Source: a virus
Reading direction: 5' to 3' (one strand)
UHGV virus genome: UHGV-0132791
Length of the DNA stretch: 17,677 bases
A program made the position numbers and the translations under genes. Below are positions 150-14,733 of the stretch, one piece after another (the first letter of the stretch is position 1; each line of letters starts with the position of its first letter). The notes beneath the pieces are model-generated. The model was not told the origin of the DNA. It did no database searches and saw nothing but the letters and a program-made list of their open reading frames with translations.

Positions 150-482
150 ATGGCGACAAAAGAAGAGTTTAACCATTACCAGCCGCTGGGTAACAGTGAT
201 CCGGCTCATACAGCAATTGCGCCTGGCGGATTGAGTGCGAAAACGCCTGCAATGACCCCGCTGATGCTGGATGGCACTACCCGTAAGCTGGTTGTGTGGG
301 ATGGCACCACCGACGGTGCAGCCGTTGGCATTCTGGCGGTTGCTGCTGACCAGACCAGCACCACACTGACGTTCTACAAGTCCGGCTCGTTCCGTTATGA
401 GGATGTGCTCTGGCCGGAGGCTGCCAGCGACGAGACTAAAAAACGGACCGCGTTTGCCGGAACGGCAATCAGCATCGTTTAA
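150..482 (+). CDS. D: Head decoration protein gpD (lambda D)
   Basis: 110-aa ORF; translation is near-identical to lambda gpD as I recall it ([30 protein letters not shown]…[35 protein letters not shown]). Confidence 0.95.
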
Positions 483-502
483 TCTTCCCCTTCATCAACA
501 AA

Positions 503-524
503 GGCCGCCTGTGCGGCTTTTTTT
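503..524 (+). terminator. GC-stem hairpin plus T7 run between D and E (terminator/attenuator-like)
   Basis: GCCGC(504-508) / loop CTGT / GCGGC(513-517) followed by TTTTTTT (518-524). Lies inside the late operon, so probably read through under antitermination. Confidence 0.45.
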
Positions 525-537
525 ATGGAAATAATTT

Positions 538-813
538 ATGTCTGTATATACAACCGCAGAATTACTGGCATCGACCCAGCATCACTTTAAGTTCGATCCG
601 CTGTTTCTGCGCCTGTTTTTCCGTGAAACCTATCCTTTCACCACGGAGAAAGTCTATCTCTCACAAATTCCGGGACTGGTAAACATGGCGCTGTACGTTT
701 CGCCGATTGTTTCCGGTGAGGTTATCCGATCCCGTGGCGGCTCCACCTCTGAATTTACGCCGGGTTATGTCAAACCCAAGCACTTAGCATGGCTTTCTGA
801 GGCTTTCGTGTAG
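538..813 (+). pseudogene. E: Major capsid protein gpE, 5' fragment (codons 1-82), interrupted by insertion; ends in 9 element-encoded codons and a stop
   Basis: Translation MSVYTTAELLA…FKFDPLFLRLFFRE.YPFTTEKVYLSQIPGLVNMALYVSPIVSGEVIRSRGGSTSEFTPGYVKPKH matches the lambda gpE N-terminus; similarity stops after codon CAC (781-783), followed by LAWLSEAFV* (TAG 811-813). Confidence 0.9.
773..782 (+). repeat. Left copy of 10-bp att core / target duplication (AACCCAAGCA)
   Basis: Exact 10-bp identity with 11397-11406, located exactly at the E breakpoint. Confidence 0.75.
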
Positions 814-892
814 TTGCTGGTTTTTACACTTAATCTTTTGATAATAAAGAATAAGTTTATCTGGTGCTTTCACTGAATTTTCCTCGTTATCT

Positions 893-930
893 GTGTGTTG
901 CAATCATCTCTGTATTGCAGCTTGTATTGC
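893..930 (+). repeat. Cluster of TGT(A/G)TTGCA direct repeats (candidate integrase arm-type sites), left end
   Basis: TGTGTTGCAA (895-904) and TGTATTGCAGCTTGTATTGC (911-930); a near-identical 20-mer (one mismatch) recurs at 11300-11319 near the right end. Confidence 0.5.
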
Positions 931-945
931 TTTTTGGGGCTAAAA

Positions 946-2181
946 ATGGCTGGCGAGAACAAACTGAGCGACAAAGCGCTTAAAGGATATCTGGGGAAAC
1001 CCAGAGAAAAGCAGATCACCATTGCTGATGGAAAGGGGCTTTCTATTCGTGTGAGTACTAAAGGGGCTGTGAGCTTTGTTTTCTTCTACAGGTTAGCAGG
1101 TGGCCGGGCTGCTCCGGTCTGGCTAACGTTGGGTAAATATCCTGATATGTCACTCAAACAGGCAAGGGAAAAGCGCGACGAGTGCCGTGGTTGGTTGGCT
1201 GACAAACGTGATCCGCGTATCCAGATTAAGATTCAGGCTGAAGAACGCTTAAAGCCGGTCACAGTGGAGGATGCACTAAATTACTGGTATGAAAATTACT
1301 GTAAGGTGCGTCGTAAAACTCATGCTGTAACGCTTGGCAGATTTCGAAAGCATATCTTTCCCTATATCGGTCATTTGCCCGTAAATGACACTCACCTATA
1401 TGAATGGCTGGACTGTTTTGACCGAATTAAACGTAATGCACCAGTTATGGCGGCGTATGTTTTTTCTGACACTAAATTAGCTCTTCGTTTTTGTCGGGTA
1501 CGCCAGTACGCGACGTGTGATGCTTTAAAGGATTTGCGCATGAGTGATGTGGGGCAGATTGCAGGTAAGCGGGATCGGGTTCTGGATGAAGCCGAACTCG
1601 GCCAGCTCTGGAAGGCAATTTTTGTCGAGCCTGATTTAAAACTAATGTCTGAATACACGCGAAAAATGTTTGTGCTTTGTACAGTATTTGGATGTCGAAT
1701 GAGTGAAGCCCGATTATCAGAATGGAGCGAATGGGATCTCGAAAGTTGGGTTTGGACTGTACCAAAAGATCACTCAAAAACTGGTGTTGAAATCGTCAGA
1801 CCAGTACCTGAAATTCTACGACAGTGGGTAACGGATGTTCACGAAGAGACAAAACATACTGGTTATGTGCTGGGAAGTCTGCGAATTAGAGAAAGCGTAA
1901 GCAAGATTGGGGGGAAAATCGGTAAACGTTTGGGCCATGAAAAACAATGGTCACTACACGACCTTAGAAGAACGCTATCTACTCATCTAAGTGATCTCGG
2001 TGTTGAATTTTATGTAGTAGAACAACTGTTAGGCCATGCGCTACCTGGCGTGGCAGGTGTTTACAACCGGAGTAAGTTTATGGCTAAAAAACTGGATGCT
2101 CTGGAACTCTGGACTACATATCTCAATAGCATCGCAGGTGCTGATTCAAAAGTGACAATCCTCAAACAAAAGGTTGGTTAA
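946..2181 (+). CDS. int: Tyrosine site-specific integrase, P4-like family
   Basis: ATG at 946 preceded by GGGG; N-terminal arm-binding-type region (…LSDKALKGY…DGKGLSIRVSTKGAVSFVFFYR…WLTLGKYPDMSLKQAR) and C-terminal catalytic motifs (LHDLRRT…LLGHA…GVYNRS). The ORF track starts at a GTG at 895; the ATG at 946 is preferred. Confidence 0.9.
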   Translation: MAGENKLSDKALKGYLGKPREKQITIADGKGLSIRVSTKGAVSFVFFYRLAGGRAAPVWLTLGKYPDMSLKQAREKRDECRGWLADKRDPRIQIKIQAEERLKPVTVEDALNYWYENYCKVRRKTHAVTLGRFRKHIFPYIGHLPVNDTHLYEWLDCFDRIKRNAPVMAAYVFSDTKLALRFCRVRQYATCDALKDLRMSDVGQIAGKRDRVLDEAELGQLWKAIFVEPDLKLMSEYTRKMFVLCTVFGCRMSEARLSEWSEWDLESWVWTVPKDHSKTGVEIVRPVPEILRQWVTDVHEETKHTGYVLGSLRIRESVSKIGGKIGKRLGHEKQWSLHDLRRTLSTHLSDLGVEFYVVEQLLGHALPGVAGVYNRSKFMAKKLDALELWTTYLNSIAGADSKVTILKQKVG

Positions 2182-2410
2182 CATGAAAAAAATGGCAATT
2201 GTTGATAAAAAGGGTCTGGAGTACATTCCTAACATTGACCGAATGATCCGTGAGAAAGAATGTCGGGAGCTAACCACTCTTGCGAACAGCACACGCTGGA
2301 AGCTGGAGAAGGAAGGAAAATTTCCTAAGCGGATCAAGATTGGTTCCACTGCTGTTGCATATCGTCTTTCAGAAGTGCAGGCATGGATTCGAGGTGAGTG
2401 GGTAGTTTAA
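2174..2410 (+). CDS. alpA: AlpA-family HTH protein (putative excisionase / transcriptional activator)
   Basis: Small ORF overlapping the int stop; …LTTLANSTRWKLEKEGKFPKRIKIGSTAVAYRLSEVQAWI is typical of the AlpA/Xis HTH family. ORF-track start is a TTG at 2174; the first ATG is at 2183. Confidence 0.7.
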   Translation: MVNMKKMAIVDKKGLEYIPNIDRMIREKECRELTTLANSTRWKLEKEGKFPKRIKIGSTAVAYRLSEVQAWIRGEWVV

Positions 2411-2435
2411 ATTATCTCAGAATAAAATATTATGA

Positions 2436-2471
2436 ATTACTGATTTGAGAATTTGTACTCAAATCAGTAAT
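2436..2471. terminator. 14-bp perfect inverted repeat between convergent genes (possible bidirectional terminator)
   Basis: ATTACTGATTTGAG (2436-2449) / loop 8 nt / CTCAAATCAGTAAT (2458-2471), between the alpA stop (2410) and the stop of the minus-strand gene (2480). AT-rich stem with no clean T-run, so weak. Confidence 0.35.
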
Positions 2472-2479
2472 AACATTCT

Positions 2480-3016
2480 TTATAAGAGATTAAATCCAAA
2501 TAAAGAGTAATCATATACCGGGGTGCATTGCATCCCACTGAATATGCTGATGTTTTTTTCTGTTTCTATCCTTTTTTCAATAAGTTGTTGTATATTTTTA
2601 CAGTACAATTTGTGTGTGATGTTATTATCGTAAGCCTGATATAGCAACGTCAATGTTGATGCTATGAAACATGCAGAAAGAAAATGAACTAGTACATGTG
2701 AGCGTTTTTTGGTTGTCCATGATGCATTCGCTTGTGAAATATAAATCATTCTGAGAATGATAATGATGATAGACAGTAACAGACCACTCAATAAAATAAG
2801 TATTGGGTTTGCGTATTTAATTAATGGTTGAGAGCAAAAAACTATTATAGCTCCTGTGACTGCGTATGAGAAAAAGGAGTAATTAAACTTCTTACTCCTT
2901 CTCTCAAGTATTTTAATTTCATCTTGTGTGGGGGGTTTAGATGCCTCCAATATAAGTTTATTAAATGTTTCTGTTATCTTGTTTTTTGTGTTTTTGGCTA
3001 TTTTTTTTAGATTCAT
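2480..3016 (-). CDS. Small membrane protein (two predicted hydrophobic helices), function unknown; AT-rich cargo gene
   Basis: 178-aa ORF with hydrophobic stretches (…AVTGAIIVFCSQPLIKYANPILILLSGLLLSIIIIILRMIYI… and …HVLVHFLSACFIASTLTLLYQAY…); visibly lower GC than its neighbours; GGAG-like SD upstream of the ATG (rc of 3014-3016). Confidence 0.6.
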   Translation of the reverse strand: MNLKKIAKNTKNKITETFNKLILEASKPPTQDEIKILERRSKKFNYSFFSYAVTGAIIVFCSQPLIKYANPILILLSGLLLSIIIIILRMIYISQANASWTTKKRSHVLVHFLSACFIASTLTLLYQAYDNNITHKLYCKNIQQLIEKRIETEKNISIFSGMQCTPVYDYSLFGFNLL

Positions 3017-3366
3017 AGCATTCTAACTCCCTTAACTTATTTATTACTTTCTCTTTATGATAAGAGAGGGGAATGACTTGGTAAAGTGATTTGTCATTAA
3101 TAATGATAATCCTTGCGATAAATATTTCTGCAAGTTATTTACCTGTTTGTTGCTATCTTGTTAAGCGTTGGGTGTGGTTTATGTTTGGAGCGACTTTATT
3201 TAATCGTGATTTTATGGATTTATATTTATATCCTGTAAGATAAGCGCATGTTAGTTCAGGAGTAGTGTCAGATAAAATTATTCGGAGTAGAACTACCTTT
3301 TCTGTTTATTGCCAGTATTTACATAGCAATGCGCCGTAGTTACTCACATCACGGCGCTGATACTAA

Positions 3367-3669
3367 TTATTCAGATTCTTTGGCTTTACGCCGCTGGAGT
3401 TCTTCACGAGCGACGGCTACGAGTTGCCCGATTTCCTCCGCTGCCTTGATGCCGATTTGTTCGACCTTAGCTAAGGCATCCAGTGAAGACACGAGGGGAT
3501 TTTCTCCGCTTCCTTCTGCCTGGCGGCGGGCGATCTCACCGCGCATGGCGGTTACTATGAATCCGGCGTTGCTTTCGCCGTCCAGTTTTACGGATTCCAT
3601 GCCCTCCATAACATCGTGGGGAACCCTGATCGTTGTCATTTGCGATTTTGCATTTTTGTATACAGACAT
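3367..3669 (-). CDS. Putative ribbon-helix-helix (Arc/CopG-like) transcriptional regulator; candidate element repressor
   Basis: 100-aa ORF; the N-terminus has an RHH-like pattern (β-strand TTIRVPHDV, helix, G-E-S-N turn, helix AGFIVTAMRGEIARR); transcribed divergently from the main element operon across a repeat-bearing intergenic region. Confidence 0.55.
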   Translation of the reverse strand: MSVYKNAKSQMTTIRVPHDVMEGMESVKLDGESNAGFIVTAMRGEIARRQAEGSGENPLVSSLDALAKVEQIGIKAAEEIGQLVAVAREELQRRKAKESE

Positions 3670-3877
3670 AGTTAATCACCAATTTGTTATGTGTATATCA
3701 CTATACACAAAAGTGAGATATAAAAACACTTGCAATGTATATCACCACAATATAATGTATATCTCATATTATGGTCGCTATGTATCTCACAATGATCGAT
3801 TCATAAAAACGACGAAACCCGGCAGTGCGCGAACACTAACCGGGCTTCTAACCAAACCGTTAAACGAGGTAACGATT
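3670..3877. promoter_or_regulatory. Divergent promoter/operator region with four ATGTATATC(A/T)C-type direct repeats
   Basis: TGTATATCAC at 3692-3701 and 3736-3745, TGTATATCTC at 3756-3765, TGTATCTCAC at 3781-3790; AT-rich; lies between the RHH gene start (3669) and the first gene of the plus-strand operon (3878). Confidence 0.5.
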
Positions 3878-4243
3878 ATGGCTGGAACACAGCATACCCA
3901 AACTCACCCTAAATTTATATACACCTTTCTGGCACTACACCACGACCGCATGGCAGATGGAGCAACTACGGTACATGTTGCCGCTGACACGCTGGTTGAT
4001 GCCCGCAAGATGGTTAAGGAGATGGGCTATACTGCGGCTTTCTGGAAAGGGCGTGAAGAAAACACGCTGTTTATTCAGAAATGCGAAAACAATTTCATCT
4101 GGCGTTTTATCGCCCTGAGCACCGCACAACCACGCGTAATACACATCGAGGCCGCCAGCGAACAGGAAGCCCGCCAACAATCCCCAACTGGCTGCGTGAT
4201 GATATTCGCCGCCCGTATTCGTCAGGAGGTATGCCGTGCTTAA
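3878..4243 (+). CDS. Hypothetical protein (first gene of element early operon)
   Basis: ATG at 3878 with GAGG 9-12 nt upstream. The ORF-track ORF 3329..4243 extends upstream antisense to the RHH gene; that extension is judged spurious. Confidence 0.55.
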   Translation: MAGTQHTQTHPKFIYTFLALHHDRMADGATTVHVAADTLVDARKMVKEMGYTAAFWKGREENTLFIQKCENNFIWRFIALSTAQPRVIHIEAASEQEARQQSPTGCVMIFAARIRQEVCRA

Positions 4244-4421
4244 AACCTTCCGTGTATTTGCTCGTGCGGTTAACCCACTAGGCCACACAATTGGTATCGC
4301 TCAGAACGTGAAGGCTGTTAATGTTCAGACGGCTATTGCTGCGGTGAGAAGCGAATCATCAGAATATGGCTTATCACAAGTCATTATTTCAGCAGTGTAT
4401 GAATTAAAAGAGGTGCATTAA
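4236..4421 (+). CDS. Hypothetical small protein
   Basis: GTG start at 4236 preceded by a strong AGGAGG (4224-4229); overlaps the upstream stop; 61 aa. Confidence 0.45.
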   Translation: MLKTFRVFARAVNPLGHTIGIAQNVKAVNVQTAIAAVRSESSEYGLSQVIISAVYELKEVH

Positions 4422-4612
4422 TGCAGGAAATTACATTACACGAAGCCGCTGAACGTGCGCACCAGACAGAAATTATTTGCCGCCTTCTTGAGGTATACCC
4501 GAACAAAATTACAGATGCTGATATATCCGCACTGGCGAGCCTACTGGCGCGTCTTTCGGGAAGTGTCGCTAGTTTTTTGATTGAGGAAGAAAGTAAGCTG
4601 GTGGGGGATTAA
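4421..4612 (+). CDS. Hypothetical small protein
   Basis: ATG overlapping the upstream stop (TAATG at 4419-4423), AGAGG SD; 63 aa. Confidence 0.5.
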   Translation: MQEITLHEAAERAHQTEIICRLLEVYPNKITDADISALASLLARLSGSVASFLIEEESKLVGD

Positions 4613-4834
4613 ATGAATACAGAACGGGAAGTCTTTTTTAAATTGTTAGCATGTGCAGAAAGTTCATTAACTTTAAATAATTCAGCAAAAGCAATATTAA
4701 ATATGTGGCTTGATTGCATAAATGACAATGAAGATGCAAATATTGCTTATGGCCTGTTGTCACTTATTGATGAAGCAGCAGAAAAACTCAATGACGCAAT
4801 AAATAGTGCCCTGCTATCAAATAAGTCGAGTTAA
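4613..4834 (+). CDS. Hypothetical small protein (AT-rich)
   Basis: ATG immediately after the preceding stop; 73 aa; lower GC than flanking genes. Confidence 0.45.
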   Translation: MNTEREVFFKLLACAESSLTLNNSAKAILNMWLDCINDNEDANIAYGLLSLIDEAAEKLNDAINSALLSNKSS

Positions 4835-4851
4835 GTCGAGGAATAAATAAT

Positions 4852-5151
4852 ATGGAAATGAAAAATTCTGGCTTTATTGCCAGCGGCCCCGCTCGGCCTG
4901 AATTTATGAACGGCGATATTTACCGCGATAAATACGGCGGCACGGTAACGATTAAAGGCGTGGCAGAACGGCGCATTACTTACCGCCGTGAGGGGTATAG
5001 CTATGACTGCGTGATGCCTGTTTATCAGTTCCGGCGTGATTTTTCCCTGGTATATGCCGCACCCCGCAGTAAGCCCATCAGCAGGGAAAAAGCGCGGGGA
5101 AACATCCAGAAAATGAAAAGCATGATTAACGCATTCAGGGGCAAAAAATGA
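4852..5151 (+). CDS. Hypothetical protein
   Basis: 99-aa ORF with GAGG SD; its stop overlaps the pri-rep start (ATGA at 5148-5151). Confidence 0.5.
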   Translation: MEMKNSGFIASGPARPEFMNGDIYRDKYGGTVTIKGVAERRITYRREGYSYDCVMPVYQFRRDFSLVYAAPRSKPISREKARGNIQKMKSMINAFRGKK

Positions 5152-6899
5152 AACTGGCACCGAACTTAAAAAAACAGCCACGCGACAGACTGACAGAGGT
5201 AATCATCTTTGCAGGTAGTGATGCGTGGAGCCATGCGAAAGAGTGGCAGGAATGGGCGGGTAAACATATTGCCGCCGACGATGTGCCGCCTGTCGTGCTG
5301 GCTGATGAGCAACTGAAAAATATCACCGATTACCGGATCATTGATGAAGATCGTCAGTGTGTGCGTGTTTACCGCGCAGGACATATCACAGAGCACAGCA
5401 TGACGCAGATTGTTACGTTATTGGCTGTGGCTGGAGTGAAGACCGTACACGAATACGCGGGGATTACTGACACCAGCCCCGTGGATTTATCCGACCAGTT
5501 GCCGCGACTCAAAGAGGAATGCGAGCGTGGGGAAAGTCTGGTGCTTAATCTTCCGACGAAGCAAAAGGCGCAACTTTCACAGATGGCAGACAGTGAACGT
5601 GCACAACTACTTGCCGATCGCTTTGATGGTGTGTGTGTTCATGCAGAAAGTGAAATCGTCCACGTATGGCGCGGCGGGGTATGGTGTCCGGTCAGCACAA
5701 TGGAGCTGAGCCGCGAAATGGTGGCGATCTATTCAGAGCACAGGGCCACATTCAGCAAGCGTGCAATTAATAACGCCGTGGAGGCGTTAAAAGTTATTGC
5801 CGACCCCATGGGGGAGCCGTCCGGTGATTTGCTACCGTTCGCCAATGGTGTGCTTGACCTGAAAACGGGGGAATTTTCCCCGCACTCGCCGGAGAACTGG
5901 ATCACCACGCACAACGGCATTGAGTACACGCCACCAGCACCAGGGGAGAACATCCGCGACAACGCGCCAAACTTTCATAAATGGCTTGATCACGCAGCCG
6001 GAAAAGACCCGCGCAAGATGATGCGTATATGTGCCGCGCTGTACATGATTATGGCGAACCGGTACGACTGGCAGATGTTTATTGAGGCCACCGGAGAGGG
6101 CGGTAGCGGTAAAAGTACATTCACACACATAGCCAGCCTTCTGGCAGGGAAACAGAACACGGTAAGCGCTGAAATGACATCGCTTGATGATGCTGGTGGA
6201 CGTGCGCAGGTTGTCGGGAGTCGTCTTATCGTCCTGGCTGACCAGCCGAAATATACAGGCGAAGGCACGGGCATCAAGAAAATCACGGGCGGCGACCCCG
6301 TGGAAATAAACCCGAAATATGAAAAGCGTTTTACGGCGGTAATCAGGGCGGTGGTGCTGGCTACCAACAATAACCCGATGATATTCACCGAACGGGCCGG
6401 AGGTGTGTCACGTCGTCGCGTAATTTTCCGCTTCGACAATATCGTTAGCGAGGCAGAAAAGGACAAGGATTTACCGGAGAAGGTCGCGGCTGAAATCCCC
6501 GTGATTATCCGCAGATTGCTGGCAAACTTTGCTGATCCAGAAAAGGCGCGACATTTGTTGATTGAACAGCGCGACGGTGAAGAAGCACTGGCGATAAAGC
6601 AACAGACGGATCCGGTTATTGAGTTTTGCCAGTTTCTGAATTTTCTGGAGGAAGCGCGCGGCCTGATGATGGGTGGCGGTGGCGATTCCGTGAAGTACAC
6701 GACCAGAAACAGCCTTTACCGCGTCTATCTGGCGTTTATGGCATACGCAGGCAGAAGCAAGCCGCTAAACGTGGCTGATTTCAGCAAGGCCATGAAGCCA
6801 GCGGCGAAAGTTTACGGATGTGAATATATAACGCGCAGGGTTAAAGGACTTACGCAAACCAATGTGACAACAACAGAGGATTGCGACGCGTTTTTATAA
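5148..6899 (+). CDS. Replication initiator, primase-helicase type (P4 alpha C-terminal / PICI Pri-Rep-like SF3 ATPase)
   Basis: 583 aa; Walker A GEGGSGKST (6093-6119), Walker B-like LIVLAD; overall pattern of the phage/plasmid primase P4-family C-terminal domain; followed directly by an iteron array. Confidence 0.85.
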   Translation: MKLAPNLKKQPRDRLTEVIIFAGSDAWSHAKEWQEWAGKHIAADDVPPVVLADEQLKNITDYRIIDEDRQCVRVYRAGHITEHSMTQIVTLLAVAGVKTVHEYAGITDTSPVDLSDQLPRLKEECERGESLVLNLPTKQKAQLSQMADSERAQLLADRFDGVCVHAESEIVHVWRGGVWCPVSTMELSREMVAIYSEHRATFSKRAINNAVEALKVIADPMGEPSGDLLPFANGVLDLKTGEFSPHSPENWITTHNGIEYTPPAPGENIRDNAPNFHKWLDHAAGKDPRKMMRICAALYMIMANRYDWQMFIEATGEGGSGKSTFTHIASLLAGKQNTVSAEMTSLDDAGGRAQVVGSRLIVLADQPKYTGEGTGIKKITGGDPVEINPKYEKRFTAVIRAVVLATNNNPMIFTERAGGVSRRRVIFRFDNIVSEAEKDKDLPEKVAAEIPVIIRRLLANFADPEKARHLLIEQRDGEEALAIKQQTDPVIEFCQFLNFLEEARGLMMGGGGDSVKYTTRNSLYRVYLAFMAYAGRSKPLNVADFSKAMKPAAKVYGCEYITRRVKGLTQTNVTTTEDCDAFL

Positions 6900-6904
6900 T
6901 TTTA

Positions 6905-7145
6905 GACAAAAGCCCTCTACCTCCTCTACCTAAAGAAAATAAATATATATTATTCAATATGATAAGAAGGTAGAGGGTCAGGTAGAAGGCAAATAAAAGC
7001 CCTCTACCTCCTCCACCATGATTAAGGTCATTTGTGAGGGGCGGGTAGAGGATGGGTAGAGGGCCCCGAAAGCCCTCTACCCATCTGAAAGCCGCGCCAT
7101 TACTGACCTGAAAGATGATTAGGTAGAGAGGTAGAGGAGGTGCAC
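6905..7145. repeat. Iteron array / putative element replication origin
   Basis: About 11 copies of CCTCTACC / GGTAGAGG in both orientations (e.g. 6913-6930, 6969-6989, 6999-7017, 7043-7063, 7073-7082, 7122-7140), including the inverted pair GGGTAGAGGGC…GCCCTCTACCC (7054-7082), flanking an AT-rich stretch (6931-6968); immediately 3' of the replication gene. Confidence 0.7.
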
Positions 7146-7185
7146 CACATTTCAAAACTTTTTAAACGAGGGGGTAAAAATAAAA

Positions 7186-7443
7186 ATGCACACATCAGGA
7201 AAACTGAACAAACATATAAAGCCACATTACCGCGCCCTTGATATGGCTGAACATTGGCTAAGGGTGGCGATTAAGGCAATAGATCGCAACGCCGGGGAAG
7301 GATACGCGAAAGCACATCCCGAACTGATAAGCGCATTCATGACAACGGCGGCTGCAAACTTTGCCACGCTGACCGAACGGGAGATTGCCGAAGCGGAGGA
7401 AGTGACAACCATCAATATTAAGTCCGGAGAGCAGGCAGCTTGA
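7186..7443 (+). CDS. Hypothetical protein
   Basis: 85-aa ORF, ATG at 7186 preceded by GAGGGGG; stop overlaps the start of the next gene. Confidence 0.5.
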   Translation: MHTSGKLNKHIKPHYRALDMAEHWLRVAIKAIDRNAGEGYAKAHPELISAFMTTAAANFATLTEREIAEAEEVTTINIKSGEQAA

Positions 7444-7850
7444 CGGCGCAAATAGCAGCTTACGGGCGGCTGGTGGACGACCCACAGGTAAAACATACCA
7501 GCAAGGGAGCACCCATGACACTGGCACGGATGACGGTATCTTTGCCATGCAGCCAGGCAGATGACGGAACGGCGACGATGTGGTTATCTGTCCTGGCGTT
7601 TGGCAGACAAGCCGACGCGCTGGCAAAGCATCACAAAGGCGAACTCCTGAGCGTGGCGGGTAATATGCAGGTGAGCCAGTGGAGCGGACAGAACGGTGAA
7701 ACGCGGCAGCGCTGGCAGGTTATCGCAGACAGCGTAATCAGTGCGCGAACGGTGCGACCTGGCGGGAACAGACGTAAAACCACAGGCACACAGGGCAACA
7801 CACCACCAGCGGGAGGGGATGATCTCTACGGTGACAATATTCCATTCTGA
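7440..7850 (+). CDS. ssb: Single-stranded DNA-binding protein (SSB-like, OB fold)
   Basis: Pattern resembling E. coli SSB (…GRLVDDPQV…, …WLSVLAFGRQADALAKHHKGELLSVAGNMQVSQWSGQNGETRQRWQVIAD…) and a C-terminal tip …DNIPF like the SSB DDDIPF tail. Start is a TTG at 7440 overlapping the upstream stop; exact start uncertain. Confidence 0.7.
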   Translation: MTAQIAAYGRLVDDPQVKHTSKGAPMTLARMTVSLPCSQADDGTATMWLSVLAFGRQADALAKHHKGELLSVAGNMQVSQWSGQNGETRQRWQVIADSVISARTVRPGGNRRKTTGTQGNTPPAGGDDLYGDNIPF

Positions 7851-7858
7851 ACGCACAG

Positions 7859-7878
7859 GCCGGAGAAATCCGGCTTTT
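7859..7878 (+). terminator. Rho-independent terminator downstream of ssb
   Basis: GCCGGA (7859-7864) / GAAA / TCCGGC (7869-7874) followed by TTTT (7875-7878). Confidence 0.6.
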
Positions 7879-8114
7879 ATCAGTTGAGTCCGTCACACCA
7901 CGCAAAAAAAAGGCCGGAATATTCCGACCCTTTCATCACCAAAGAGAATAATTTATGTCTTTGAACTTGTAACGCTGTACAGAATGACACGTAACGCCGG
8001 ATAAATAAACGAAGATTGAAACTTTGCACAATATTGCATAGCAATGCATAAAGATGCCGATCAAGGCAGATGATAAAATTAATACGACACTTTTACTAAG
8101 TATTAAGAGGTTAT

Positions 8115-9155
8115 ATGAGTGATTTATATTCGCCAGCGGAGTTAATACAGACTGTTAATGCTGAAGATATTCAATGGCAGATTAACTCTTTATTTATAAA
8201 CCTGTTTTTTAAGCGAGTCGTTACATTTGAGACGCGGGATATTGCGCTTGATATTATTGACGATCCAGACATCCCGATGGCTGCATTTTGTTCCCCTATG
8301 GTTGGTAGTAAAGTATCACGCGATGAAGGCTACGAATCAAAAGTAATTCGCCCTGGCTACATGAAGCCAAAAAGTAGTATAGACCCAAATAAAATAGCCG
8401 TTCGTCAACCAGGCGTATCACCGGAACAATTCAATGCATATTCATCACGCAATTTCAAAATAAAGCGAGCGATGGTAAGACAAGCGCAGGCCATTCGCGC
8501 ACGTATTGAATGGCTTGCTGTTCAGGCAATCACAACGGGGAAAAATATCATTGAGGGCGATGGCATTGAACGTTATGAACTGGACTGGAATATAAAACCA
8601 CAAAATATTATCACGCAGTCCGGCGGCACGGAGTGGAGCGGTAGAGATTTATCAACATTTGATCCAAATGATGACATCGAAGAGTACGCAGAAATCAGCG
8701 AAGGGACTACAAATATCATCGTAATGGGACGCAACGTATGGAAAAAATACCGCGCCTTTAAAGCAGTAAAAGATTGCCTTGATACTCGACGGGGATCTAA
8801 TTCCGTTCTTGAAACGGCCCTGAAAAATCTTGGGGATTCCGTCAGTTTTAAGGGTTACGTAGGCGATGTGGCTATTGTTGTGTATAGCGGACGTTATACC
8901 GACGAGGACGGAACAGAAAAATATTTCCTTGATCCTGATTTGATGGTTCTTGGCAATACATCACTTCAGGGCATCGTTGCATACGGTGGCATTCAGGATC
9001 CGGAGCTAATCCGAATGGGGCTGACTAAAGCCGAACTCGCACCGAAAAACTACATTGTGCCTGGAGATCCGGCTATTGAGTACGTACAAACGCACTCTGC
9101 ACCACAGCCAATACCGGCCCGCATCAATCGTTTTGTTACCGTTCGCATTGGTTAA
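8115..9155 (+). CDS. Element-encoded major capsid protein, lambda gpE paralogue
   Basis: 346 aa; clearly homologous but divergent from gpE (shared blocks PGYMKPK, ITQSGGTEWS.RD.ST.DP.DDIEEYA, KAVKD.LDTRRGSNS.LETA.K.LG..VS.KGY.GDVAIVVYSG.Y, MVLGNT); strong SD AAGAGG. Confidence 0.9.
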   Translation: MSDLYSPAELIQTVNAEDIQWQINSLFINLFFKRVVTFETRDIALDIIDDPDIPMAAFCSPMVGSKVSRDEGYESKVIRPGYMKPKSSIDPNKIAVRQPGVSPEQFNAYSSRNFKIKRAMVRQAQAIRARIEWLAVQAITTGKNIIEGDGIERYELDWNIKPQNIITQSGGTEWSGRDLSTFDPNDDIEEYAEISEGTTNIIVMGRNVWKKYRAFKAVKDCLDTRRGSNSVLETALKNLGDSVSFKGYVGDVAIVVYSGRYTDEDGTEKYFLDPDLMVLGNTSLQGIVAYGGIQDPELIRMGLTKAELAPKNYIVPGDPAIEYVQTHSAPQPIPARINRFVTVRIG

Positions 9156-9164
9156 GGGGGAGCA

Positions 9165-9506
9165 ATGGCTACTCATTACACTGAACTCATGGCTGGCACT
9201 GAAGCACTGGTTACTACGTTGGGGATATTTTCAGCTAATAAAGGGGTAATTCCTGCATTTACGCCACTGATGCAAGAAGATGCAACTGGTGCACTGGTGG
9301 TATGGGATGGAACGAGCGCAGGCAAAGCTGTTTATGTTTCCGCTGTACAAATCGATACAGCGACAAAAACGCAGGCTCAGGTTTATAAAACCGGCGTCTT
9401 AAATGTTGATGCTCTGAACTGGCCTGAGTCTGTAACACAACTATCAGCAAAAGTTGCTGCGTTTGTTGGCTCAGGTATTTCTGTTCAGCCGCTGGCACGT
9501 GTGTGA
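9165..9506 (+). CDS. Element-encoded head decoration protein, lambda gpD paralogue
   Basis: 113 aa; gpD-like blocks (TPLM…LVVWDGT…YKTG…WPE…) and length; immediately downstream of the capsid paralogue, with SD AAGGGGGAG. Confidence 0.8.
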   Translation: MATHYTELMAGTEALVTTLGIFSANKGVIPAFTPLMQEDATGALVVWDGTSAGKAVYVSAVQIDTATKTQAQVYKTGVLNVDALNWPESVTQLSAKVAAFVGSGISVQPLARV

Positions 9507-9515
9507 GGTACGAGA

Positions 9516-9860
9516 ATGATTGAAAGAGATAGTCAGCTACGAGAGCTATTAGATATCGATGACAAAATGCGCTTAAGCGAGCGTCTTGTCGATATGAATC
9601 AGGTGATGGAACTTACAACCCTGAGTCGCCGTACACTGCTAAACCTTGAGGCTCGTGGAGAGTTCCCTGAGCGTGTGCAGGTTACGGAAGGGCGTAAGGC
9701 TTGGTATTTAAGCGAGGTTGTTGAGTGGATTAACAATATCCCGCGAGCATCAAACTATTGCCTCGTACCCACACCGGAAAAACCTGATGCGGCGTTATGC
9801 CTCAAGATTGAACGCGCCAGGCGTAATGCCCTGAAAGGGCGCAATAAGTTGATTGGTTGA
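9516..9860 (+). CDS. Second AlpA-family HTH regulator
   Basis: 114 aa; …MNQVMELTTLSRRTLLNLEARGEFPERVQVTEGRKAWYLSEVVEWI… is AlpA/HTH_17-like; located between the decoration gene and the cos site. Confidence 0.7.
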   Translation: MIERDSQLRELLDIDDKMRLSERLVDMNQVMELTTLSRRTLLNLEARGEFPERVQVTEGRKAWYLSEVVEWINNIPRASNYCLVPTPEKPDAALCLKIERARRNALKGRNKLIG

Positions 9861-9868
9861 TGAAATTA

Positions 9869-9895
9869 GGGCCCGCTCTGGCTGGCGGGTCCTTT
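9869..9895 (+). terminator. GC-rich hairpin plus short T run after second AlpA-like gene
   Basis: GGGCCCGC (9869-9876) / 8-nt loop / GCGGGTCC (9885-9892) with one G·U pair, followed by TTT. Confidence 0.35.
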
Positions 9896-9913
9896 CCGGC
9901 AATCCGGCAGACT

Positions 9914-9950
9914 ACGGGGCGGAAGGCGCGCGGGTTTTCGCTATTTATGA
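9914..9950. other. cos-like site (cosN region) of the element
   Basis: ACGGGGCGGAAGGCGCGCGGGTTTTCGCTATTTATGA: flanks match the lambda cos left-end sequence as I recall it (…ACGGGGCGGCGACCTCGCGGGTTTTCGCTATTTATGA…), but the central hexamer differs (AAGGCG vs CGACCT); lies about 150 bp upstream of the Nu1-like TerS, as in lambda. Confidence 0.6.
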
Positions 9951-10076
9951 GCATTTTTAGGGGACTGGTGGTGGTTTTGTTGTTCGCTATATCTGTATGA
10001 ATAATAAGAGAAAAACACAATCAACACACCAACCTGAAACAGTAATTAAGTTGTGGTATCAATGAAATTGCACCTG

Positions 10077-10604
10077 ATGAACAAAAAAAACATGGCAAAA
10101 AGTTGCCGTGTAAGCGCCACTGCGTTCGATAAGTGGGGAGTGATTCCCGTCGAGCGTAAGGGCCGCGAGGCGTTTTATGATGTCGCCAGTGTAATAGATA
10201 ATCGGGTTAACAATGCAATCAGCCAGATTACAAACGAAACGGGCGAGATTGATGATGATGAACTCCTACGAGTCAGGATCAGATTGCTGACAGCACAGGC
10301 AGAGGCGCAGGAGCTTAAAAACGAGCGCGAACGCGGCGACGTTATTGATACAGCGTTTTGTATATACGTGCTTTCAAAACTGGCGAGTCAGATTTCTTCA
10401 ATCATGGACAGCCTGCCGCTTGCCATGACAAGGAAGTTTCCCGACATGAAGCCGTCTATGCTGGATGGACTGAAAAAAGAAGTTATCAGAGCCTGTAACG
10501 CATGCGCAAAACTTGACGAAAACATACCGCTGATGCTGTCCGATTATCTGATGGAAACTGCCGGAAACGTACCGGATAAGTTGCAGCTGAATAAAGATAA
10601 GTAA
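10077..10604 (+). CDS. Terminase small subunit, lambda Nu1-like
   Basis: Homology to lambda Nu1 (MNKKNMAKS…YDVASVID…LLTAQAEAQELKNERERGDVIDTAFCIYVLSKLASQISSIMDSLPLAMTRKFPDMK vs Nu1 …LTRAQADAQELKNARDSAEVVETAFCTFVLSRIAGEIASILDGLPLSVQRRFPELE). ORF track begins at a GTG at 10053; ATG 10077 is chosen by alignment with the Nu1 N-terminus. Confidence 0.85.
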   Translation: MNKKNMAKSCRVSATAFDKWGVIPVERKGREAFYDVASVIDNRVNNAISQITNETGEIDDDELLRVRIRLLTAQAEAQELKNERERGDVIDTAFCIYVLSKLASQISSIMDSLPLAMTRKFPDMKPSMLDGLKKEVIRACNACAKLDENIPLMLSDYLMETAGNVPDKLQLNKDK

Positions 10605-10615
10605 CGTAGTACGCT

Positions 10616-10897
10616 ATGACTGAATCCGAAATACTGCGATTAATCCGCCGTGCTTGTGGAATCAGCAAGCAGCATGACGAACAGGCCACGCAGCCGGACA
10701 GCGTGATCGCCGAAAATTACGCGCGTGTTGTTGCTGATGTGATGCGCCGTGATGGTATTGAGCTTAACGGCGTGGATATGCGCGACATACGGATCAGATT
10801 CCTTGAGTTGCTGGCATACCGTCGCCGTTCTCAACAACGAAGGGAGAGCGCGAAAAACACTTATCAGTGGAAGAAGCCGGAACGGTTGCGGCGGTAG
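10616..10897 (+). CDS. Hypothetical basic protein downstream of TerS
   Basis: 93-aa ORF, ATG at 10616 twelve nt after the TerS stop; no recognisable similarity to terminase large subunit. Confidence 0.45.
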   Translation: MTESEILRLIRRACGISKQHDEQATQPDSVIAENYARVVADVMRRDGIELNGVDMRDIRIRFLELLAYRRRSQQRRESAKNTYQWKKPERLRR

Positions 10898-11235
10898 ATT
10901 CCTGATATTCAGGAAAACCACGAATCCGGGGGTTTACTGGCGCGGTTACGGCGGTGACACACACCGAGGCAGAACAATTACCGTAGGTTAAAGCGACAGT
11001 ATTCACACCAAAGGCAGAAATTAGCTGTTAACGTAACTGACTGATATTTTCGGGAACAGCCAACGGCTGAGGCCGGAGCTATAAAAATAGCTTTGGGTAC
11101 AGTCCTCAGTTTTGAGGGATGTTAACCAACTGAATAATAAGCAAACCTCAAAATTGAGTTTTGTATCTGCCTGAGTTATTTCTGTGCTAACTTGCTGATA
11201 TTCCCGATAACGCAAAATTGCGTTGGCTGGTGGGT

Positions 11236-11255
11236 GAGTTGCAGATCTGCAACTC
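11236..11255. repeat. 20-bp perfect palindrome GAGTTGCAGATCTGCAACTC near right end of element
   Basis: Exact dyad symmetry over 20 bp, about 140 bp inside the right att core; contains the TTGCA motif shared with the arm-type repeats. Confidence 0.6.
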
Positions 11256-11299
11256 GGCTATGAAACTTAATAATCGAACAGCATGTAAATTCATTTCTG

Positions 11300-11320
11300 T
11301 GTATTGCAGCATGTATTGCA
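11300..11320 (+). repeat. TGTATTGCAGCATGTATTGCA direct repeats (candidate arm-type sites), right end
   Basis: Matches 911-930 (TGTATTGCAGCTTGTATTGC) with one mismatch, in the same orientation, about 77 bp inside the right core. Confidence 0.5.
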
Positions 11321-11396
11321 ACATAGTCATTCTGGTAGAGATTATGCTCTATTTTTCCTCTTATATCATTCACATACTTACGTCATTGACTCATGT

Positions 11397-11406
11397 AACC
11401 CAAGCA
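11397..11406 (+). repeat. Right copy of 10-bp att core / target duplication (AACCCAAGCA)
   Basis: Identical to 773-782; preceded by an in-frame TAA (11396-11398) that ends the element-side frame. Confidence 0.75.
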
Positions 11407-12187
11407 TGAGGTGAATCCGCAGATGACCCTGCGTCGCCTGCCGGATGAAGATCCGCAGAACCTGGCTGACCCGGCTTACCGTCGTCGCCGTATTATTCGG
11501 CAGAATATGCTGGATGAAAATCTGGCGATTGCCCAGGTCGAAGAGATGCAGGCAGTTTCTGCCGTGCTTAAGGGCAAATATACCATGACCGGTGAAGCCT
11601 TCGATCCGGTTGAGGTGGATATGGGCCGCAGTGAGGCGAATAACATCACGCAGTCCGGCGGCACGGAGTGGAGCAAGCGTGACAAGTCCACGTATGACCC
11701 GACCGACGATATCGAAGCCTACGCGCTGAACGCCAGCGGTGTGGTGAATATCATCGTGTTCGATCCGAAAGGCTGGGCGCTGTTCCGTTCCTTCAAAGCC
11801 GTCAAGGAGAAGCTGGATACCCGTCGCGGCTCTCATTCCGAGCTGGAGACAGCGGTAAAAGACCTGGGCAAAGCGGTGTCCTATAAGGGAATGTATGGCG
11901 ATGTGGCCATCGTCGTGTATTCCGGACAGTACGTGGAAAACGGCGTCAAAAAGAACTTCCTGCCGGACAACACGATGGTGCTGGGGAACACTCAGGCTCG
12001 CGGTCTGCGCACCTATGGCTGCATTCAGGATGCGGACGCACAGCGCGAAGGCATTAACGCCTCTGCCCGTTACCCGAAAAACTGGGTGACCACCGGCGAT
12101 CCGGCGCGTGAGTTCACCATGATTCAGTCAGCACCGCTGATGCTGCTGGCTGATCCTGATGAGTTCGTGTCCGTACAACTGGCGTAA
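11399..12187 (+). pseudogene. E: Major capsid protein gpE, 3' fragment (codons ~80-341), separated from its 5' part by the insertion
   Basis: Translation PKHEVNPQMTLRRLPDEDPQNLADPAYRRRRII…DEFVSVQLA* matches the lambda gpE C-terminal 260 residues almost exactly; there is no start codon or RBS of its own at the homology boundary (the ORF track starts at an internal GTG at 11411). Confidence 0.9.
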
Positions 12188-12189
12188 TC

Positions 12190-12214
12190 ATGGCCCTTCG
12201 GGGCCATTTCTCTC
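12190..12214 (+). terminator. Hairpin between E and FI (ATGGCCC-TTCG-GGGCCAT) followed by T-rich tract
   Basis: 7-bp stem with 4-nt loop at 12190-12207, then TTCTCTC; likely an attenuator-type structure inside the late operon. Confidence 0.35.
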
Positions 12215-12227
12215 GGTGGAGGAGTCC

Positions 12228-12623
12228 ATGACGAAAGATGAACTGATTGCCCGTCTCCGCTCGCTGGGTGAACAACTGAACCGTGATGTCAGCCTGACGG
12301 GGACGAAAGAAGAACTGGCGCTCCGTGTGGCAGAGCTGGAAGAGGAGCTTGATGACACGGATGACGCTGCCGGTCAGGACACATCTGTCAGCCCGGAAAA
12401 TGCGCTGACCGGACATGAAAATGAGGTGGTATCAGCGCAGCCGGATACCGTGACTGATACGGCTGATCTGGTCACGGTTGTGGCACTGGTGACGCTGCAT
12501 ACTGATGCACTTCACGCCACGCGGGATGAACCTGTGGCATTTGTGCTGCCGGGAACGGCGTTCCGTGTCTCTGCCGGTGTGGCAGCTGAAATGACAGAGC
12601 GCGGCCTGGCCAGAATGCAATAA
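12228..12623 (+). CDS. FI: DNA packaging protein FI
   Basis: MTKDELIARLRSLGEQLNRDVSLTGTKEELALRVAEL… …AFRVSAGVAAEMTERGLARMQ matches lambda gpFI (some substitutions mid-protein); ATG at 12228 with GGAGGAG SD. The ORF track starts upstream at 12159. Confidence 0.9.
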   Translation: MTKDELIARLRSLGEQLNRDVSLTGTKEELALRVAELEEELDDTDDAAGQDTSVSPENALTGHENEVVSAQPDTVTDTADLVTVVALVTLHTDALHATRDEPVAFVLPGTAFRVSAGVAAEMTERGLARMQ

Positions 12624-12634
12624 CGGGAGGCGCT

Positions 12635-12988
12635 GTGGCTGATTTCGATAACCTGTTCGATGCTGCCATTGCCCGCGCCGATGAAACGATACGCGGGTAC
12701 ATGGGAACGTCAGCCACCATGACATCCGGTGAGCAGTCCGGCGCAGTAATACGTGGTGTTTTTGATGACCCTGAAAATATCAGCTATGCCGGACAGGGCG
12801 TGCGCGTTGAAGGCTCCAGCCCGTCCCTGTTTGTCCGGACTGATGATGTGCGGCAGCTGCGGCGCGGCGACACGCTGACCATCGGTGAGGAAAACTTCTG
12901 GATAGACCGGATTTCGCCGGATGATGGCGGAAGCTGTCATCTCTGGCTTGGGCGGGGCGTACCGCCTGCCGTTAACCGTCGCCGCTGA
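12635..12988 (+). CDS. FII: Head-tail joining protein FII
   Basis: (GTG)ADFDNLFDAAIARADETIRGYMGTSAT…LWLGRGVPPAVNRRR matches lambda gpFII. Confidence 0.9.
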   Translation: MADFDNLFDAAIARADETIRGYMGTSATMTSGEQSGAVIRGVFDDPENISYAGQGVRVEGSSPSLFVRTDDVRQLRRGDTLTIGEENFWIDRISPDDGGSCHLWLGRGVPPAVNRRR

Positions 12989-12999
12989 AAGGGGGATGT

Positions 13000-13578
13000 A
13001 TGGCCATAAAAGGTCTTGAGCAGGCCGTTGAAAACCTCAGCCGTATCAGCAGAACGGCGGTGCCCGGTGCCGCCGCAATGGCCATTAACCGCGTTGCTTC
13101 ATCCGCGATATCGCAGTCGGCGTCACAGGTTGCTCGTGAGACAAAGGTACGCCGGAAACTGGTAAAGGAAAGGGCCAGGCTGAAAAGGGCCACGGTCAAA
13201 AATCCGCAGGCCAGAATCAAGGTTAACCGGGGGGATTTGCCCGTAATCAGGCTGGGTAACGCGCGGGTTGTCCTGTCCCGACGCAGGCGTCGTAAAAAGG
13301 GGCAGCGTTCATCCCTGAAAGGTGGCGACAGCGTGCTTGTGGTGGGAAACCGTCGTATTCCCGGCGCGTTTATTCAGCAACTGAAAAATGGCCGCTGGCA
13401 TGTCATGCAGCGTGTGGCCGGGAAAAACCGTTACCCCATTGATGTGGTGAAAATCCCGATGGCGGTGCCGCTGACCACGGCGTTTAAACAGAATATTGAA
13501 CGGATACGGCGTGAACGTCTTCCGAAAGAGCTGGGCTATGAGCTGCAGCATCAACTGAGAATGGTAATAAAGCGATGA
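13000..13578 (+). CDS. Z: Tail assembly/completion protein Z
   Basis: MAIKGLEQAVENLSRIS…[16 protein letters not shown] matches lambda gpZ; stop overlaps the U start. Confidence 0.9.
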   Translation: MAIKGLEQAVENLSRISRTAVPGAAAMAINRVASSAISQSASQVARETKVRRKLVKERARLKRATVKNPQARIKVNRGDLPVIRLGNARVVLSRRRRRKKGQRSSLKGGDSVLVVGNRRIPGAFIQQLKNGRWHVMQRVAGKNRYPIDVVKIPMAVPLTTAFKQNIERIRRERLPKELGYELQHQLRMVIKR

Positions 13579-13970
13579 AACATACTGAACTCCGTGCAGC
13601 CGTACTGGATGCACTGGAAAAACATGACACCGGGGCGACGCTTTTTGATGGTCGCCCCGCTGTTTTTGATGAGGAGGATTTTCCGGCAGTTGCCGTTTAT
13701 CTCACCGGCGCTGAATACACGGGCGAAGAGCTGGACAGCGATACCTGGCAGGCGGAGCTGCATATTGAAGTTTTCCTGCCTGCTCAGGTGCCGGATTCAG
13801 AGCTGGATTCGTGGATGGAGTCCCGGATTTATCCGGTGATGAGCGATGTCCCGGCACTGTCAGATTTGATCACCAGTATGGTGGCCAGTGGCTATGACTA
13901 CCGGCGCGACGATGATGCGGGCCTGTGGAGTTCAGCCGATCTGACTTATGTCATTACCTATGAAATGTGA
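13575..13970 (+). CDS. U: Tail terminator protein U
   Basis: [33 protein letters not shown]… matches lambda gpU. Confidence 0.9.
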
Positions 13971-13977
13971 GGACGAT

Positions 13978-14718
13978 ATGCCTGTACCAAATCCAGTAAT
14001 GCCGGTGAAAGGGGCCGGGACCACCCTGTGGGTTTATAAGGGGAACGGTGACCCTTATGCGAACCCGCTTTCAGACGTTGACTGGTCGCGTCTGGCTAAA
14101 GTTAAAGACCTGACGCCCGGCGAACTGACCGCTGAGTCCTATGACGACAGCTATCTCGATGATGAAGATGCGGACTGGACTGCGACCGGGCAGGGGCAGA
14201 AATCTGCCGGAGATACCAGCTTCACGCTGGCGTGGATGCCCGGAGAGCAGGGGCAGCAGGCGCTGCTGGCGTGGTTTAATGAAGGGGATACCCGTGCCTA
14301 TAAAATCCGCTTCCCGAACGGCACGGTCGATGTGTTCCGCGGCTGGGTCAGCAGTATCGGTAAGGCGGTGACGGCGAAGGAAGTGATCACCCGCACGGTG
14401 AAAGTCACCAACGTGGGACGTCCGTCGATGGCAGAAGATCGCAGCACGGTGACGGCGACAACCGGCATGACGGTGACACCCGCCAGTGCTTCCGTAGTGA
14501 AAGGGCAGAGCACTACGCTGACCGTGGCATTCCAGCCGGAGGGCGCAACCGACAAGAGCTTCCGTGCGGTGTCTGCGGATAAAACAAAAGCCACCGTGTC
14601 GGTCAGCGGTATGACCATCACCGTGAACGGCGTTGCTGCAGGCAAGGTCAACATTCCGGTTGTATCCGGTAATGGTGAGTTTGCTGCGGTTGCAGAAATC
14701 ACCGTCACCGCCAGTTAA
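13978..14718 (+). CDS. V: Major tail protein V
   Basis: [22 protein letters not shown]…[15 protein letters not shown] matches lambda gpV including the C-terminal Ig-like region. ORF track starts 30 nt upstream (13948); ATG 13978 preferred. Confidence 0.9.
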
Positions 14719-14733
14719 TCCGGAGAGTCAGCG

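Follow-up and report, generated by a model that had tools for sequence, protein, structure and literature searches.

A satellite embedded in, and sharing the orientation of, the late operon of its lambda-like helper prophage, and the case for a proposed late read-through into its int and alpA genes

The window analysed here, a 17,677-nt stretch of the virus genome UHGV-0132791 (all coordinates are window positions), is the head-tail portion of the late operon of a lambda-like prophage, with every helper gene on the plus strand, and it carries inside the major capsid gene E a satellite of the phage-inducible chromosomal island (PICI) type (783-11406, 10,624 bp). Fifteen of the 17 satellite genes are, like the helper late genes, on the plus strand (7713 nt versus 840 nt), as an earlier note on this DNA had claimed; the two genes that it excepted, one for a membrane protein and one for a supposed ribbon-helix-helix regulator, are indeed on the minus strand, although the second belongs by family assignment to YlcI/YnfO (NCBIfam NF041551, phrog_6522). 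This co-orientation was already known, and the read-through of helper late transcription into the satellite that the earlier note proposed is a rediscovery of a hypothesis published in 2023 for the near-identical element 11capE of Escherichia coli NRG857c, in a Discussion that has helper late transcription continuing into the satellite (PMC10111431). No later paper testing the hypothesis was found in the literature. We put the probability of such a cis read-through step at roughly 55%. The anatomy of the window fits the interpretation of the earlier note, which needs correcting on excision, on the hairpins and on the dependence of the capsid and small terminase (TerS) genes.

The element is almost certainly a PICI of the helper-embedded type (HE-PICI), a phage parasite wired into the late operon of its helper, and it is of a kind already known, being a member of the published HE-PICI family at the site E:Phage_cap_E:80, or E:80 (PMC10111431). 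To this family the window adds another member, hairpins that are unconvincing as barriers to transcription, one of them within a cos site, and a capsid/TerS module common to non-embedded PICIs.

Any one insertion has an even chance of either orientation, and the E:80 copies, which all share a single attachment (att) site, were counted as one event. Relatives at six distinct late-gene sites are all co-oriented with their targets (6/6; 2^-6 = 0.016). In E. coli, co-oriented relatives occupy the ClpP-protease/capsid fusion gene of another PICI, the portal gene B and the large-terminase gene. A scan of one genome per species found further co-oriented relatives in E in Kosakonia and Cedecea, in ClpP in Rahnella and Kluyvera, near position 241 of the portal in Erwinia, at the portal N-terminus in Xenorhabdus hominickii and in the G/T gene in X. 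kozodoii; in these Xenorhabdus genomes the interrupted genes are those for the portal, hit in its N-terminal part, and for the G/T tail chaperone (extract positions 5635-5850; 5671-5880). The co-orientation is beyond chance, and agrees with the published observation that at 14/14 sites every HE-PICI points in the direction of the late gene that it interrupts (PMC10111431).

The case for read-through is made at the left end of the element, where the following features are arranged in tandem.

150-482, plus strand: head decoration gene D (Pfam HDPD, E = 7e-21)
500-521, plus strand: D-E intergenic hairpin with a U7 tail (fold z = -3.0; own hairpin scan)
538-782, plus strand: 5' fragment of E, the gene for the major capsid protein (E', codons 1-82; Pfam Phage_cap_E profile positions 1-78)
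946-2181, plus strand: tyrosine integrase gene int (Pfam Arm-DNA-bind_3, Phage_integrase)
2183-2410, plus strand: alpA, of the excisionase/activator family (Pfam Phage_AlpA, E = 3e-15), 1 nt after int

The open frame of the E 5' fragment enters the element and reaches its stop at 813, 132 nt short of the start of int at 946, and only 1 nt separates int from alpA. From the D-E hairpin to the end of alpA, and on to position 2436, there is no opposing gene and no terminator-like site on the plus strand. Because this path is open, a late transcript would enter int-alpA directly, and since the two genes are 1 nt apart with no terminator, any late transcript would deliver both.

This arrangement is suggestive of the following course of events. 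In the lysogen, silence of the helper late operon would keep the int-alpA genes of the satellite silent as well. Upon induction, Q-antiterminated polymerase from the helper late promoter would pass D and the truncated E' and enter int-alpA, and Int and AlpA would excise the satellite late in the cycle, rebuilding E and the late operon. In addition, AlpA would turn on the satellite's own operons, a role established in a related PICI, EcCICFT073, where AlpA activates PICI genes, activates its own expression and is required for induction, and where alpA expression is helper-dependent (PMC6092414). Late excision has been measured in 11capE: by quantitative PCR and deep sequencing, the composite of helper and satellite excises and replicates first, with satellite excision following only at ~2 h and reaching 42-98% by 2-3 h after induction (PMC10111431). 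Late, cis-triggered excision fits these data and is unproven by them. A satellite embedded in this way would be silent in the lysogen, excise late, be replicated passively and keep the helper capsid gene knocked out up to its departure, all of which is set out in the 2023 paper (PMC10111431).

Beyond int-alpA, read-through may carry passive transcription through the remainder of the element and, as long as the satellite is unexcised, into FI to H of the helper. The earlier note had made helper tail-gene expression dependent on such read-through; any dependence would be transient and confined to unexcised copies, because excision, as reconstructed in silico, rebuilds E and the operon. Coupling of the satellite capsid and TerS genes to the helper late transcript, also proposed in the note, would be additive at most. 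The closest relative of the module is found in a chromosomal PICI at tRNA-Pro, beyond the reach of helper transcripts, and the capsid and TerS genes must thus have a route of expression independent of read-through; since the same module works in non-embedded PICIs, the capsid, decoration and TerS genes would not depend on read-through. At the end of the cycle, the satellite cos and its Nu1-like TerS may redirect the helper terminase to satellite DNA.

A stronger version of the hypothesis, which we offer as tentative, is that the antiterminated helper late transcript is itself the necessary induction signal of the satellite, acting in cis in place of a diffusible helper inducer, with the interruption of E serving as a timer that lets the satellite's capsid and decoration genes and its cos/TerS precede those of the helper. 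Cis-induction has been proposed in outline (PMC10111431). The variant in the window, which has a cos allele and a TerS of its own, would lend itself well to testing it.

Several points weigh against read-through. No transcript data for any HE-PICI were found in the literature, and the Q gene and the late promoter are both outside the window. The helper is possibly defective, as its portal has become a pseudogene in the complete genome that is closest and no virions were obtained from the type strain. A weak sigma-70-like site is present upstream of int (823-852), and could be a promoter of its own for that gene. Further along, ~1.45 kb of the plus strand (2411-3877) would be transcribed as untranslated antisense RNA, which would stop an unmodified polymerase via Rho. 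Lastly, the same late module is present in relatives that are not embedded and whose induction is in trans, and read-through is therefore not required by the biology of the family.

This last point leads to an explanation in which co-orientation is selected only against conflict, that is, against the head-on collisions and antisense silencing that very strong late transcription would inflict on an opposed satellite, with satellite genes expressed solely from their own AlpA-dependent promoters and the helper supplying its trigger in trans, as for EcCICFT073. There is precedent in the alpA of a non-embedded PICI, which is induced in trans by helper phages and whose product auto-activates (PMC6092414), and the scheme also draws on a late module and upstream region whose closest relatives are in the chromosomal tRNA-Pro PICI, on an operator-like repeat array in a divergent regulatory region (3670-3877), and on a hairpin that in all variants examined follows the gene for the single-stranded DNA-binding protein (SSB) and so divides the replication zone from the late zone. 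However, conflict avoidance leaves unexplained why int-alpA is positioned directly downstream of the interrupted gene with no terminator between, and minus-strand cargo is tolerated by this element as it is by the helper operon. We consider it a doubtful account of the whole.

Whether a late transcript could cross the element depends in part on its hairpins, three of which the earlier note had placed in the path of the transcript. All three fold at about the positions that it gave; only the one at 7857-7876 is terminator-like on the plus strand, and the one at 9868-9893 is part of cos.

2436-2471: hairpin with a 14-bp AU-rich stem (z = -5.1), between the convergent alpA (plus strand) and membrane-protein gene (minus strand), with no plus-strand U-tract
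7857-7876, plus strand: GC-rich hairpin after SSB (z = -2.6), with a stem of 8 bp and UUUUAU behind it
9868-9893: hairpin with a 10-bp stem (z = -1.1, no better than shuffles), in the cos region
12190-12207, plus strand: E-FI hairpin in the helper, a compact GC stem with a U tail (own hairpin scan)

The hairpin after SSB, kept at this position in all variants examined, is the only terminator-like plus-strand hairpin in the element, and it is no stronger than the D-E hairpin at 500-521. The latter is the best plus-strand look-alike of an intrinsic terminator in the region, and, lying inside the late operon, is read through as a matter of course. A hairpin-plus-U-tract scan of our own, which is noisy, returned compact GC stems with U tails only at 500-521, 7857-7876 and 12190-12207. 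Consensus scans were not enriched over shuffles for promoters (18 versus 19.0) or for terminators (16 versus 12.2), counts that do not settle promoter positions. The hairpin at 9868-9893 belongs to the cos site and is not a likely terminator. The helper operon itself tolerates terminator-like hairpins (500-521 and 12190-12207) as well as minus-strand genes, iss and ylcI being present inside the late transcription unit of related helpers. In lambda, Q-modified polymerase passes both intrinsic and Rho-dependent terminators. Because the helper hairpins are at least as terminator-like, and because Q-modified polymerase reads through such sites, the hairpins of the element are unlikely to act as transcription barriers.

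The same observations bear on a strict transcriptional gate, whereby the element hairpins would terminate late transcription and FI to H would stay silent until the satellite excises. Such a gate could draw on the GC-rich stem and UUUUAU tail at 7857-7876, on the very stable 14-bp stem at 2436-2471 (z = -5.1), and on the absence of phage from the NRG857c composite when the same prophage with an intact E forms plaques in strain LF82. Yet the helper D-E hairpin sits inside the operon although it is at least as terminator-like, the reading-through of terminators by Q-modified polymerase is established lambda biology, 2436-2471 has no U-tract, 9868-9893 is part of cos, and disruption of E already explains the missing plaques; we regard the gate as improbable. 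That co-orientation is a functionless historical accident of att-site geometry is very improbable indeed, for although the prior for one insertion is 50% and all E:80 copies are one event, six sites with different target genes are co-oriented, as are the published 14/14.

The boundaries of the element are set by its att sites.

773-782: attL core AACCCAAGCA, identical to the 10-mer at 11397-11406
909-931, plus strand: doubled TGTATTGC motif of the downstream attP arm, 131.5 bp from the core centre
11298-11320, plus strand: doubled TGTATTGC motif of the upstream attP arm, 81.5 bp from the core centre
11397-11406: attR core AACCCAAGCA, identical to the 10-mer at 773-782

The two copies of AACCCAAGCA form a 10-bp direct repeat flanking the satellite, and the letters neighbouring them differ. 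Deletion of 783-11406 in silico yields a 1026-nt open reading frame (ORF) for an intact 341-aa E (junction ...GYVKPKH/EVNPQ...), and many E. coli genomes contain the rebuilt junction uninterrupted, as an 800-nt probe across it showed (800/800 nt, 99.8% identity). The satellite interrupts E without supplying replacement sequence for it, and integration is by the element's tyrosine integrase at the 10-bp core in the helper major capsid gene. The span of 538-12623 given in the earlier note is wider than the element itself (783-11406), since it takes in FI and the two pieces of E as well. The att-arm half-site TATTGCA was considered as a recurring signal at internal promoters and dropped, its count being near expectation (5 matches versus 3.3 expected, not significant).

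HE-PICIs were described by Tommasini, Mageeney & Williams (2023, NAR Genom Bioinform; PMC10111431), with Eco567.11capE of E. coli NRG857c, an 11-kb PICI in a lambda-like capsid gene with a 10-bp identity block, as the type element of E:80. The int gene in the window is 99.7% identical in nucleotide sequence to that of 11capE, is found at identities of at least 95% in 177 complete E. coli genomes, and encodes a protein with 49-54% amino-acid identity to the integrases of the portal, ClpP and TerL (large terminase) site groups in pairwise comparison. The insertion point fits the E:80 group, with E' reaching Phage_cap_E profile position 78 at residue 82 and the 3' fragment continuing the profile. 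The doubled motifs match the HE-PICI-specific doubled motif tgTGTATTGCantgTGTATTGCa, and their spacing (81.5 and 131.5 bp) agrees with its published distances from the attP centre, 81 +/- 2 bp on the upstream side and 132 +/- 2 bp on the downstream side (PMC10111431). The int, alpA and primase genes are all oriented like the interrupted E, and the zones follow one another as integration, dynamic (Bro/dynamic in the family description), replication and late. In the dynamic zone, protein scans found no Bro-N domain and Rfam no C4/isrK RNA; the type element is likewise without an annotated Bro-N gene. As for Gram-negative PICIs in general, the element has int, alpA and a primase gene with an adjacent putative origin (ori), a size within ~10-15 kb, and no tail or lysis genes. 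Assignment to the capsid-forming PICIs (cf-PICIs) was ruled out, since only the capsid protein, decoration protein and TerS are present, with no portal, protease, connector or HNH gene. A P4-like assignment was considered as well: Rfam at E <= 1 gave no P4-type (CI/seqA) C4/isrK immunity RNA in the window, and psu, delta, sid and ash were not named in Pfam, PHROG or NCBIfam scans, which included no search aimed at those genes. No genome in the complete E. coli set contains the whole window, the best match covering 94% of it with 95.2% identity. The element is mosaic, ~98% identical to 11capE from int to the YlcI-like gene, divergent in the replication zone, and closest in the late zone to the tRNA-Pro PICI.

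The remaining features of the element were assigned from Pfam, PHROG, NCBIfam and PADLOC scans of proteins and Rfam scans of RNAs.

2480-3016, minus strand: 178-aa membrane protein, low-GC cargo (GC 0.33)
3367-3669, minus strand: 100-aa YlcI/YnfO-family protein (NCBIfam NF041551, E = 8.5e-20; phrog_6522)
3689-3790, plus strand: ATGTATATCWC as a direct repeat in four copies, between the divergent YlcI-like and icd-like genes
3878-4243, plus strand: gene for an Icd-like protein, opening the rightward early/replication operon (NCBIfam phage_ICD_like; PHROG 'transcriptional repressor' families)
4236-5151, plus strand: overlapping or abutting genes, namely three small ORFs and one for a DUF4222 protein
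5148-6899, plus strand: primase/helicase (D5_N, DUF5906; Pfam)
6909-7081, directly 3' of the primase gene: iterons, AAAGCCCTCTACC three times exactly, inside longer imperfect repeats
7186-7850, plus strand: orf85 and SSB (SSB 7440-7850; Pfam/PHROG scans)
8115-9155, plus strand: gpE-like major capsid protein (Pfam Phage_cap_E, 3e-42; 42% identity to helper E)
9165-9506, plus strand: gpD-like decoration protein (Pfam HDPD, 3e-16; 44% identity to helper D)
9516-9860, plus strand: second AlpA-like helix-turn-helix (HTH) regulator (Pfam Phage_AlpA, 2e-9; phrog_2790)
9868-9957, plus strand: satellite cos region, with the hairpin at 9868-9893, a cosN-like 12-mer and conserved nicking flanks (alignment with lambdoid cos sites)
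10053-10604, plus strand: Nu1-like TerS (Pfam Phage_Nu1, 1.4e-24; phrog_57)
10053-10897, plus strand: Nu1-like TerS together with orf93 (93 aa)

The repeats at 3689-3790, within 3670-3877, point to a candidate operator or internally regulated promoter of the replication operon, and the iterons at 6909-7081 are probably the satellite replication origin; a PICI ori has been described at the matching position, 3' of the primase gene (PMC6092414). A sub-threshold match to a symR-like antisense RNA (35 bits; gathering score 61) at 3811-3883 on the minus strand overlaps the start codon of the icd-like gene, and the remaining Rfam matches at E <= 1 were set aside as chance resemblances to miRNAs and leaders.

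Elements at E:80 have two variable cargo slots, whose genes are always on the minus strand, one after alpA and one before attR. The first holds here the low-GC membrane-protein gene (2480-3016), for which Pfam gave nothing that passed the curated cutoff, its one match (DUF443) being sub-threshold, and for which PHROG, NCBIfam and PADLOC gave no family. The second (10898-11396) is empty here, holds DUF2971 in one relative and HEPN and DUF262 genes in 11capE. The slot genes look like lysogeny-expressed, possibly defensive, morons.

Within the satellite cos region, 9885-9957 can be aligned to lambdoid cos sites and the nicking flanks are conserved. The cosN-like 12-mer at 9917-9928 is GGGCGGAAGGCG, an allele also present in phage PhiR46_1, where helper-type relatives carry GGGCGGCGACCT instead. 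The cosB side is diverged and unrelated to that of the helper. The satellite TerS has 38% identity to the helper-type Nu1, with the C-terminal half better conserved. This combination of an intact Nu1-like TerS and a diverged cosB side suggests that the TerS/cos pair redirects packaging. No copy of the element was found in the phage collection, in which only 73-bp cos matches were seen.

Compared with 11capE, the element shares the integrase, the 10-bp att core at the same E codon, the doubled arm motifs, the orientation, and the gene order int-alpA, membrane protein, YlcI-like, icd-like, DUF4222, primase, SSB, capsid, decoration, HTH. In contrast, 11capE is without TerS, has at its 3' end a 64-aa ORF followed by the minus-strand HEPN and DUF262 genes, and has a 255-bp cos match, whereas the window element has an intact Nu1-like TerS and orf93, a cos similarity of only 73 bp, and replication and late zones that are 74-91% identical to those of 11capE or unalignable. 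A further difference is the site of the helper, which in the closest complete genome is the DLP12/ompT locus and not icd.

Gram-negative PICIs including EcCICFT073 (Fillol-Salom et al. 2018, ISME J; PMC6092414) have in common with the element int-alpA, a primase gene with a downstream ori, a size of ~10 kb, late-zone capsid and decoration homologues, and lambdoid cos helpers; they differ in occupying chromosomal sites, with helper contact in trans only, whereas the window element is inside a helper capsid gene. The closest relative of the late module (7440-10900) is in the PICI at tRNA-Pro (yejM-yejO) in E. coli MEW (extract positions 10000-13543), with which the SSB-capsid-decoration-HTH-TerS-orf93 module is shared at 90.3% identity over its full length, including the intergenic hairpins of an almost identical SSB-capsid region. 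That PICI has another integrase and integration site and is not prophage-embedded, and this relationship thus indicates that late modules move between embedded and chromosomal PICIs. The cf-PICIs likewise encode their own major capsid protein and small terminase, but have in addition portal, protease, head-tail connector and HNH genes that the window element does not; an HE-PICI with a fuller capsid set exists at the TerL site in an E. coli relative. Regulated gene integrity, or active lysogeny, is comparable in that a gene is interrupted without replacement and precise excision restores it, here E (discussed in PMC10111431), but differs in that E is itself a gene of a second mobile element and in that the satellite is the one that the switch serves.

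Downstream of the element, the helper operon continues.

11407-12187, plus strand: 3' fragment of gene E (codons 83-341; 259 codons; Phage_cap_E profile positions 94-328)
12228-12623, plus strand: FI (Pfam Packaging_FI)
12228-15572, plus strand: FI, FII, Z, U, V, G and T (Pfam matches and annotation of relatives), followed by H to the window end

The Pfam families matched in this tail region are Packaging_FI, Phage_attach, Minor_tail_Z, Phage_tail_U, Phage_TTP_12 and Phage_TAC_2. Related helpers have a gene of the Q antiterminator family upstream on the same strand, in one contiguous block with lysis genes, cos and head genes. In E. coli GN06489, the closest complete genome, the helper portal gene (extract positions 12227-13828) contains an internal stop and carries a pseudogene annotation, and some helpers of this satellite are probably defective.

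The helper of 11capE in NRG857c also exists with an intact E, as prophage Perceval of strain LF82 (NC_011993.1, 1190000-1225000). Perceval is 99.8-99.98% identical to the NRG857c flanks, with breakpoints exactly at the 10-bp core. It is reported to form plaques (PMC9928086), whereas the NRG857c composite gave no plaque-forming units and no recovered virions (PMC10111431), a difference that is suggestive only, as it was seen in different laboratories with different indicator strains. With helpers that are ~99.8% identical, NRG857c (occupied) and LF82 Perceval (empty) constitute a ready-made experimental pair.

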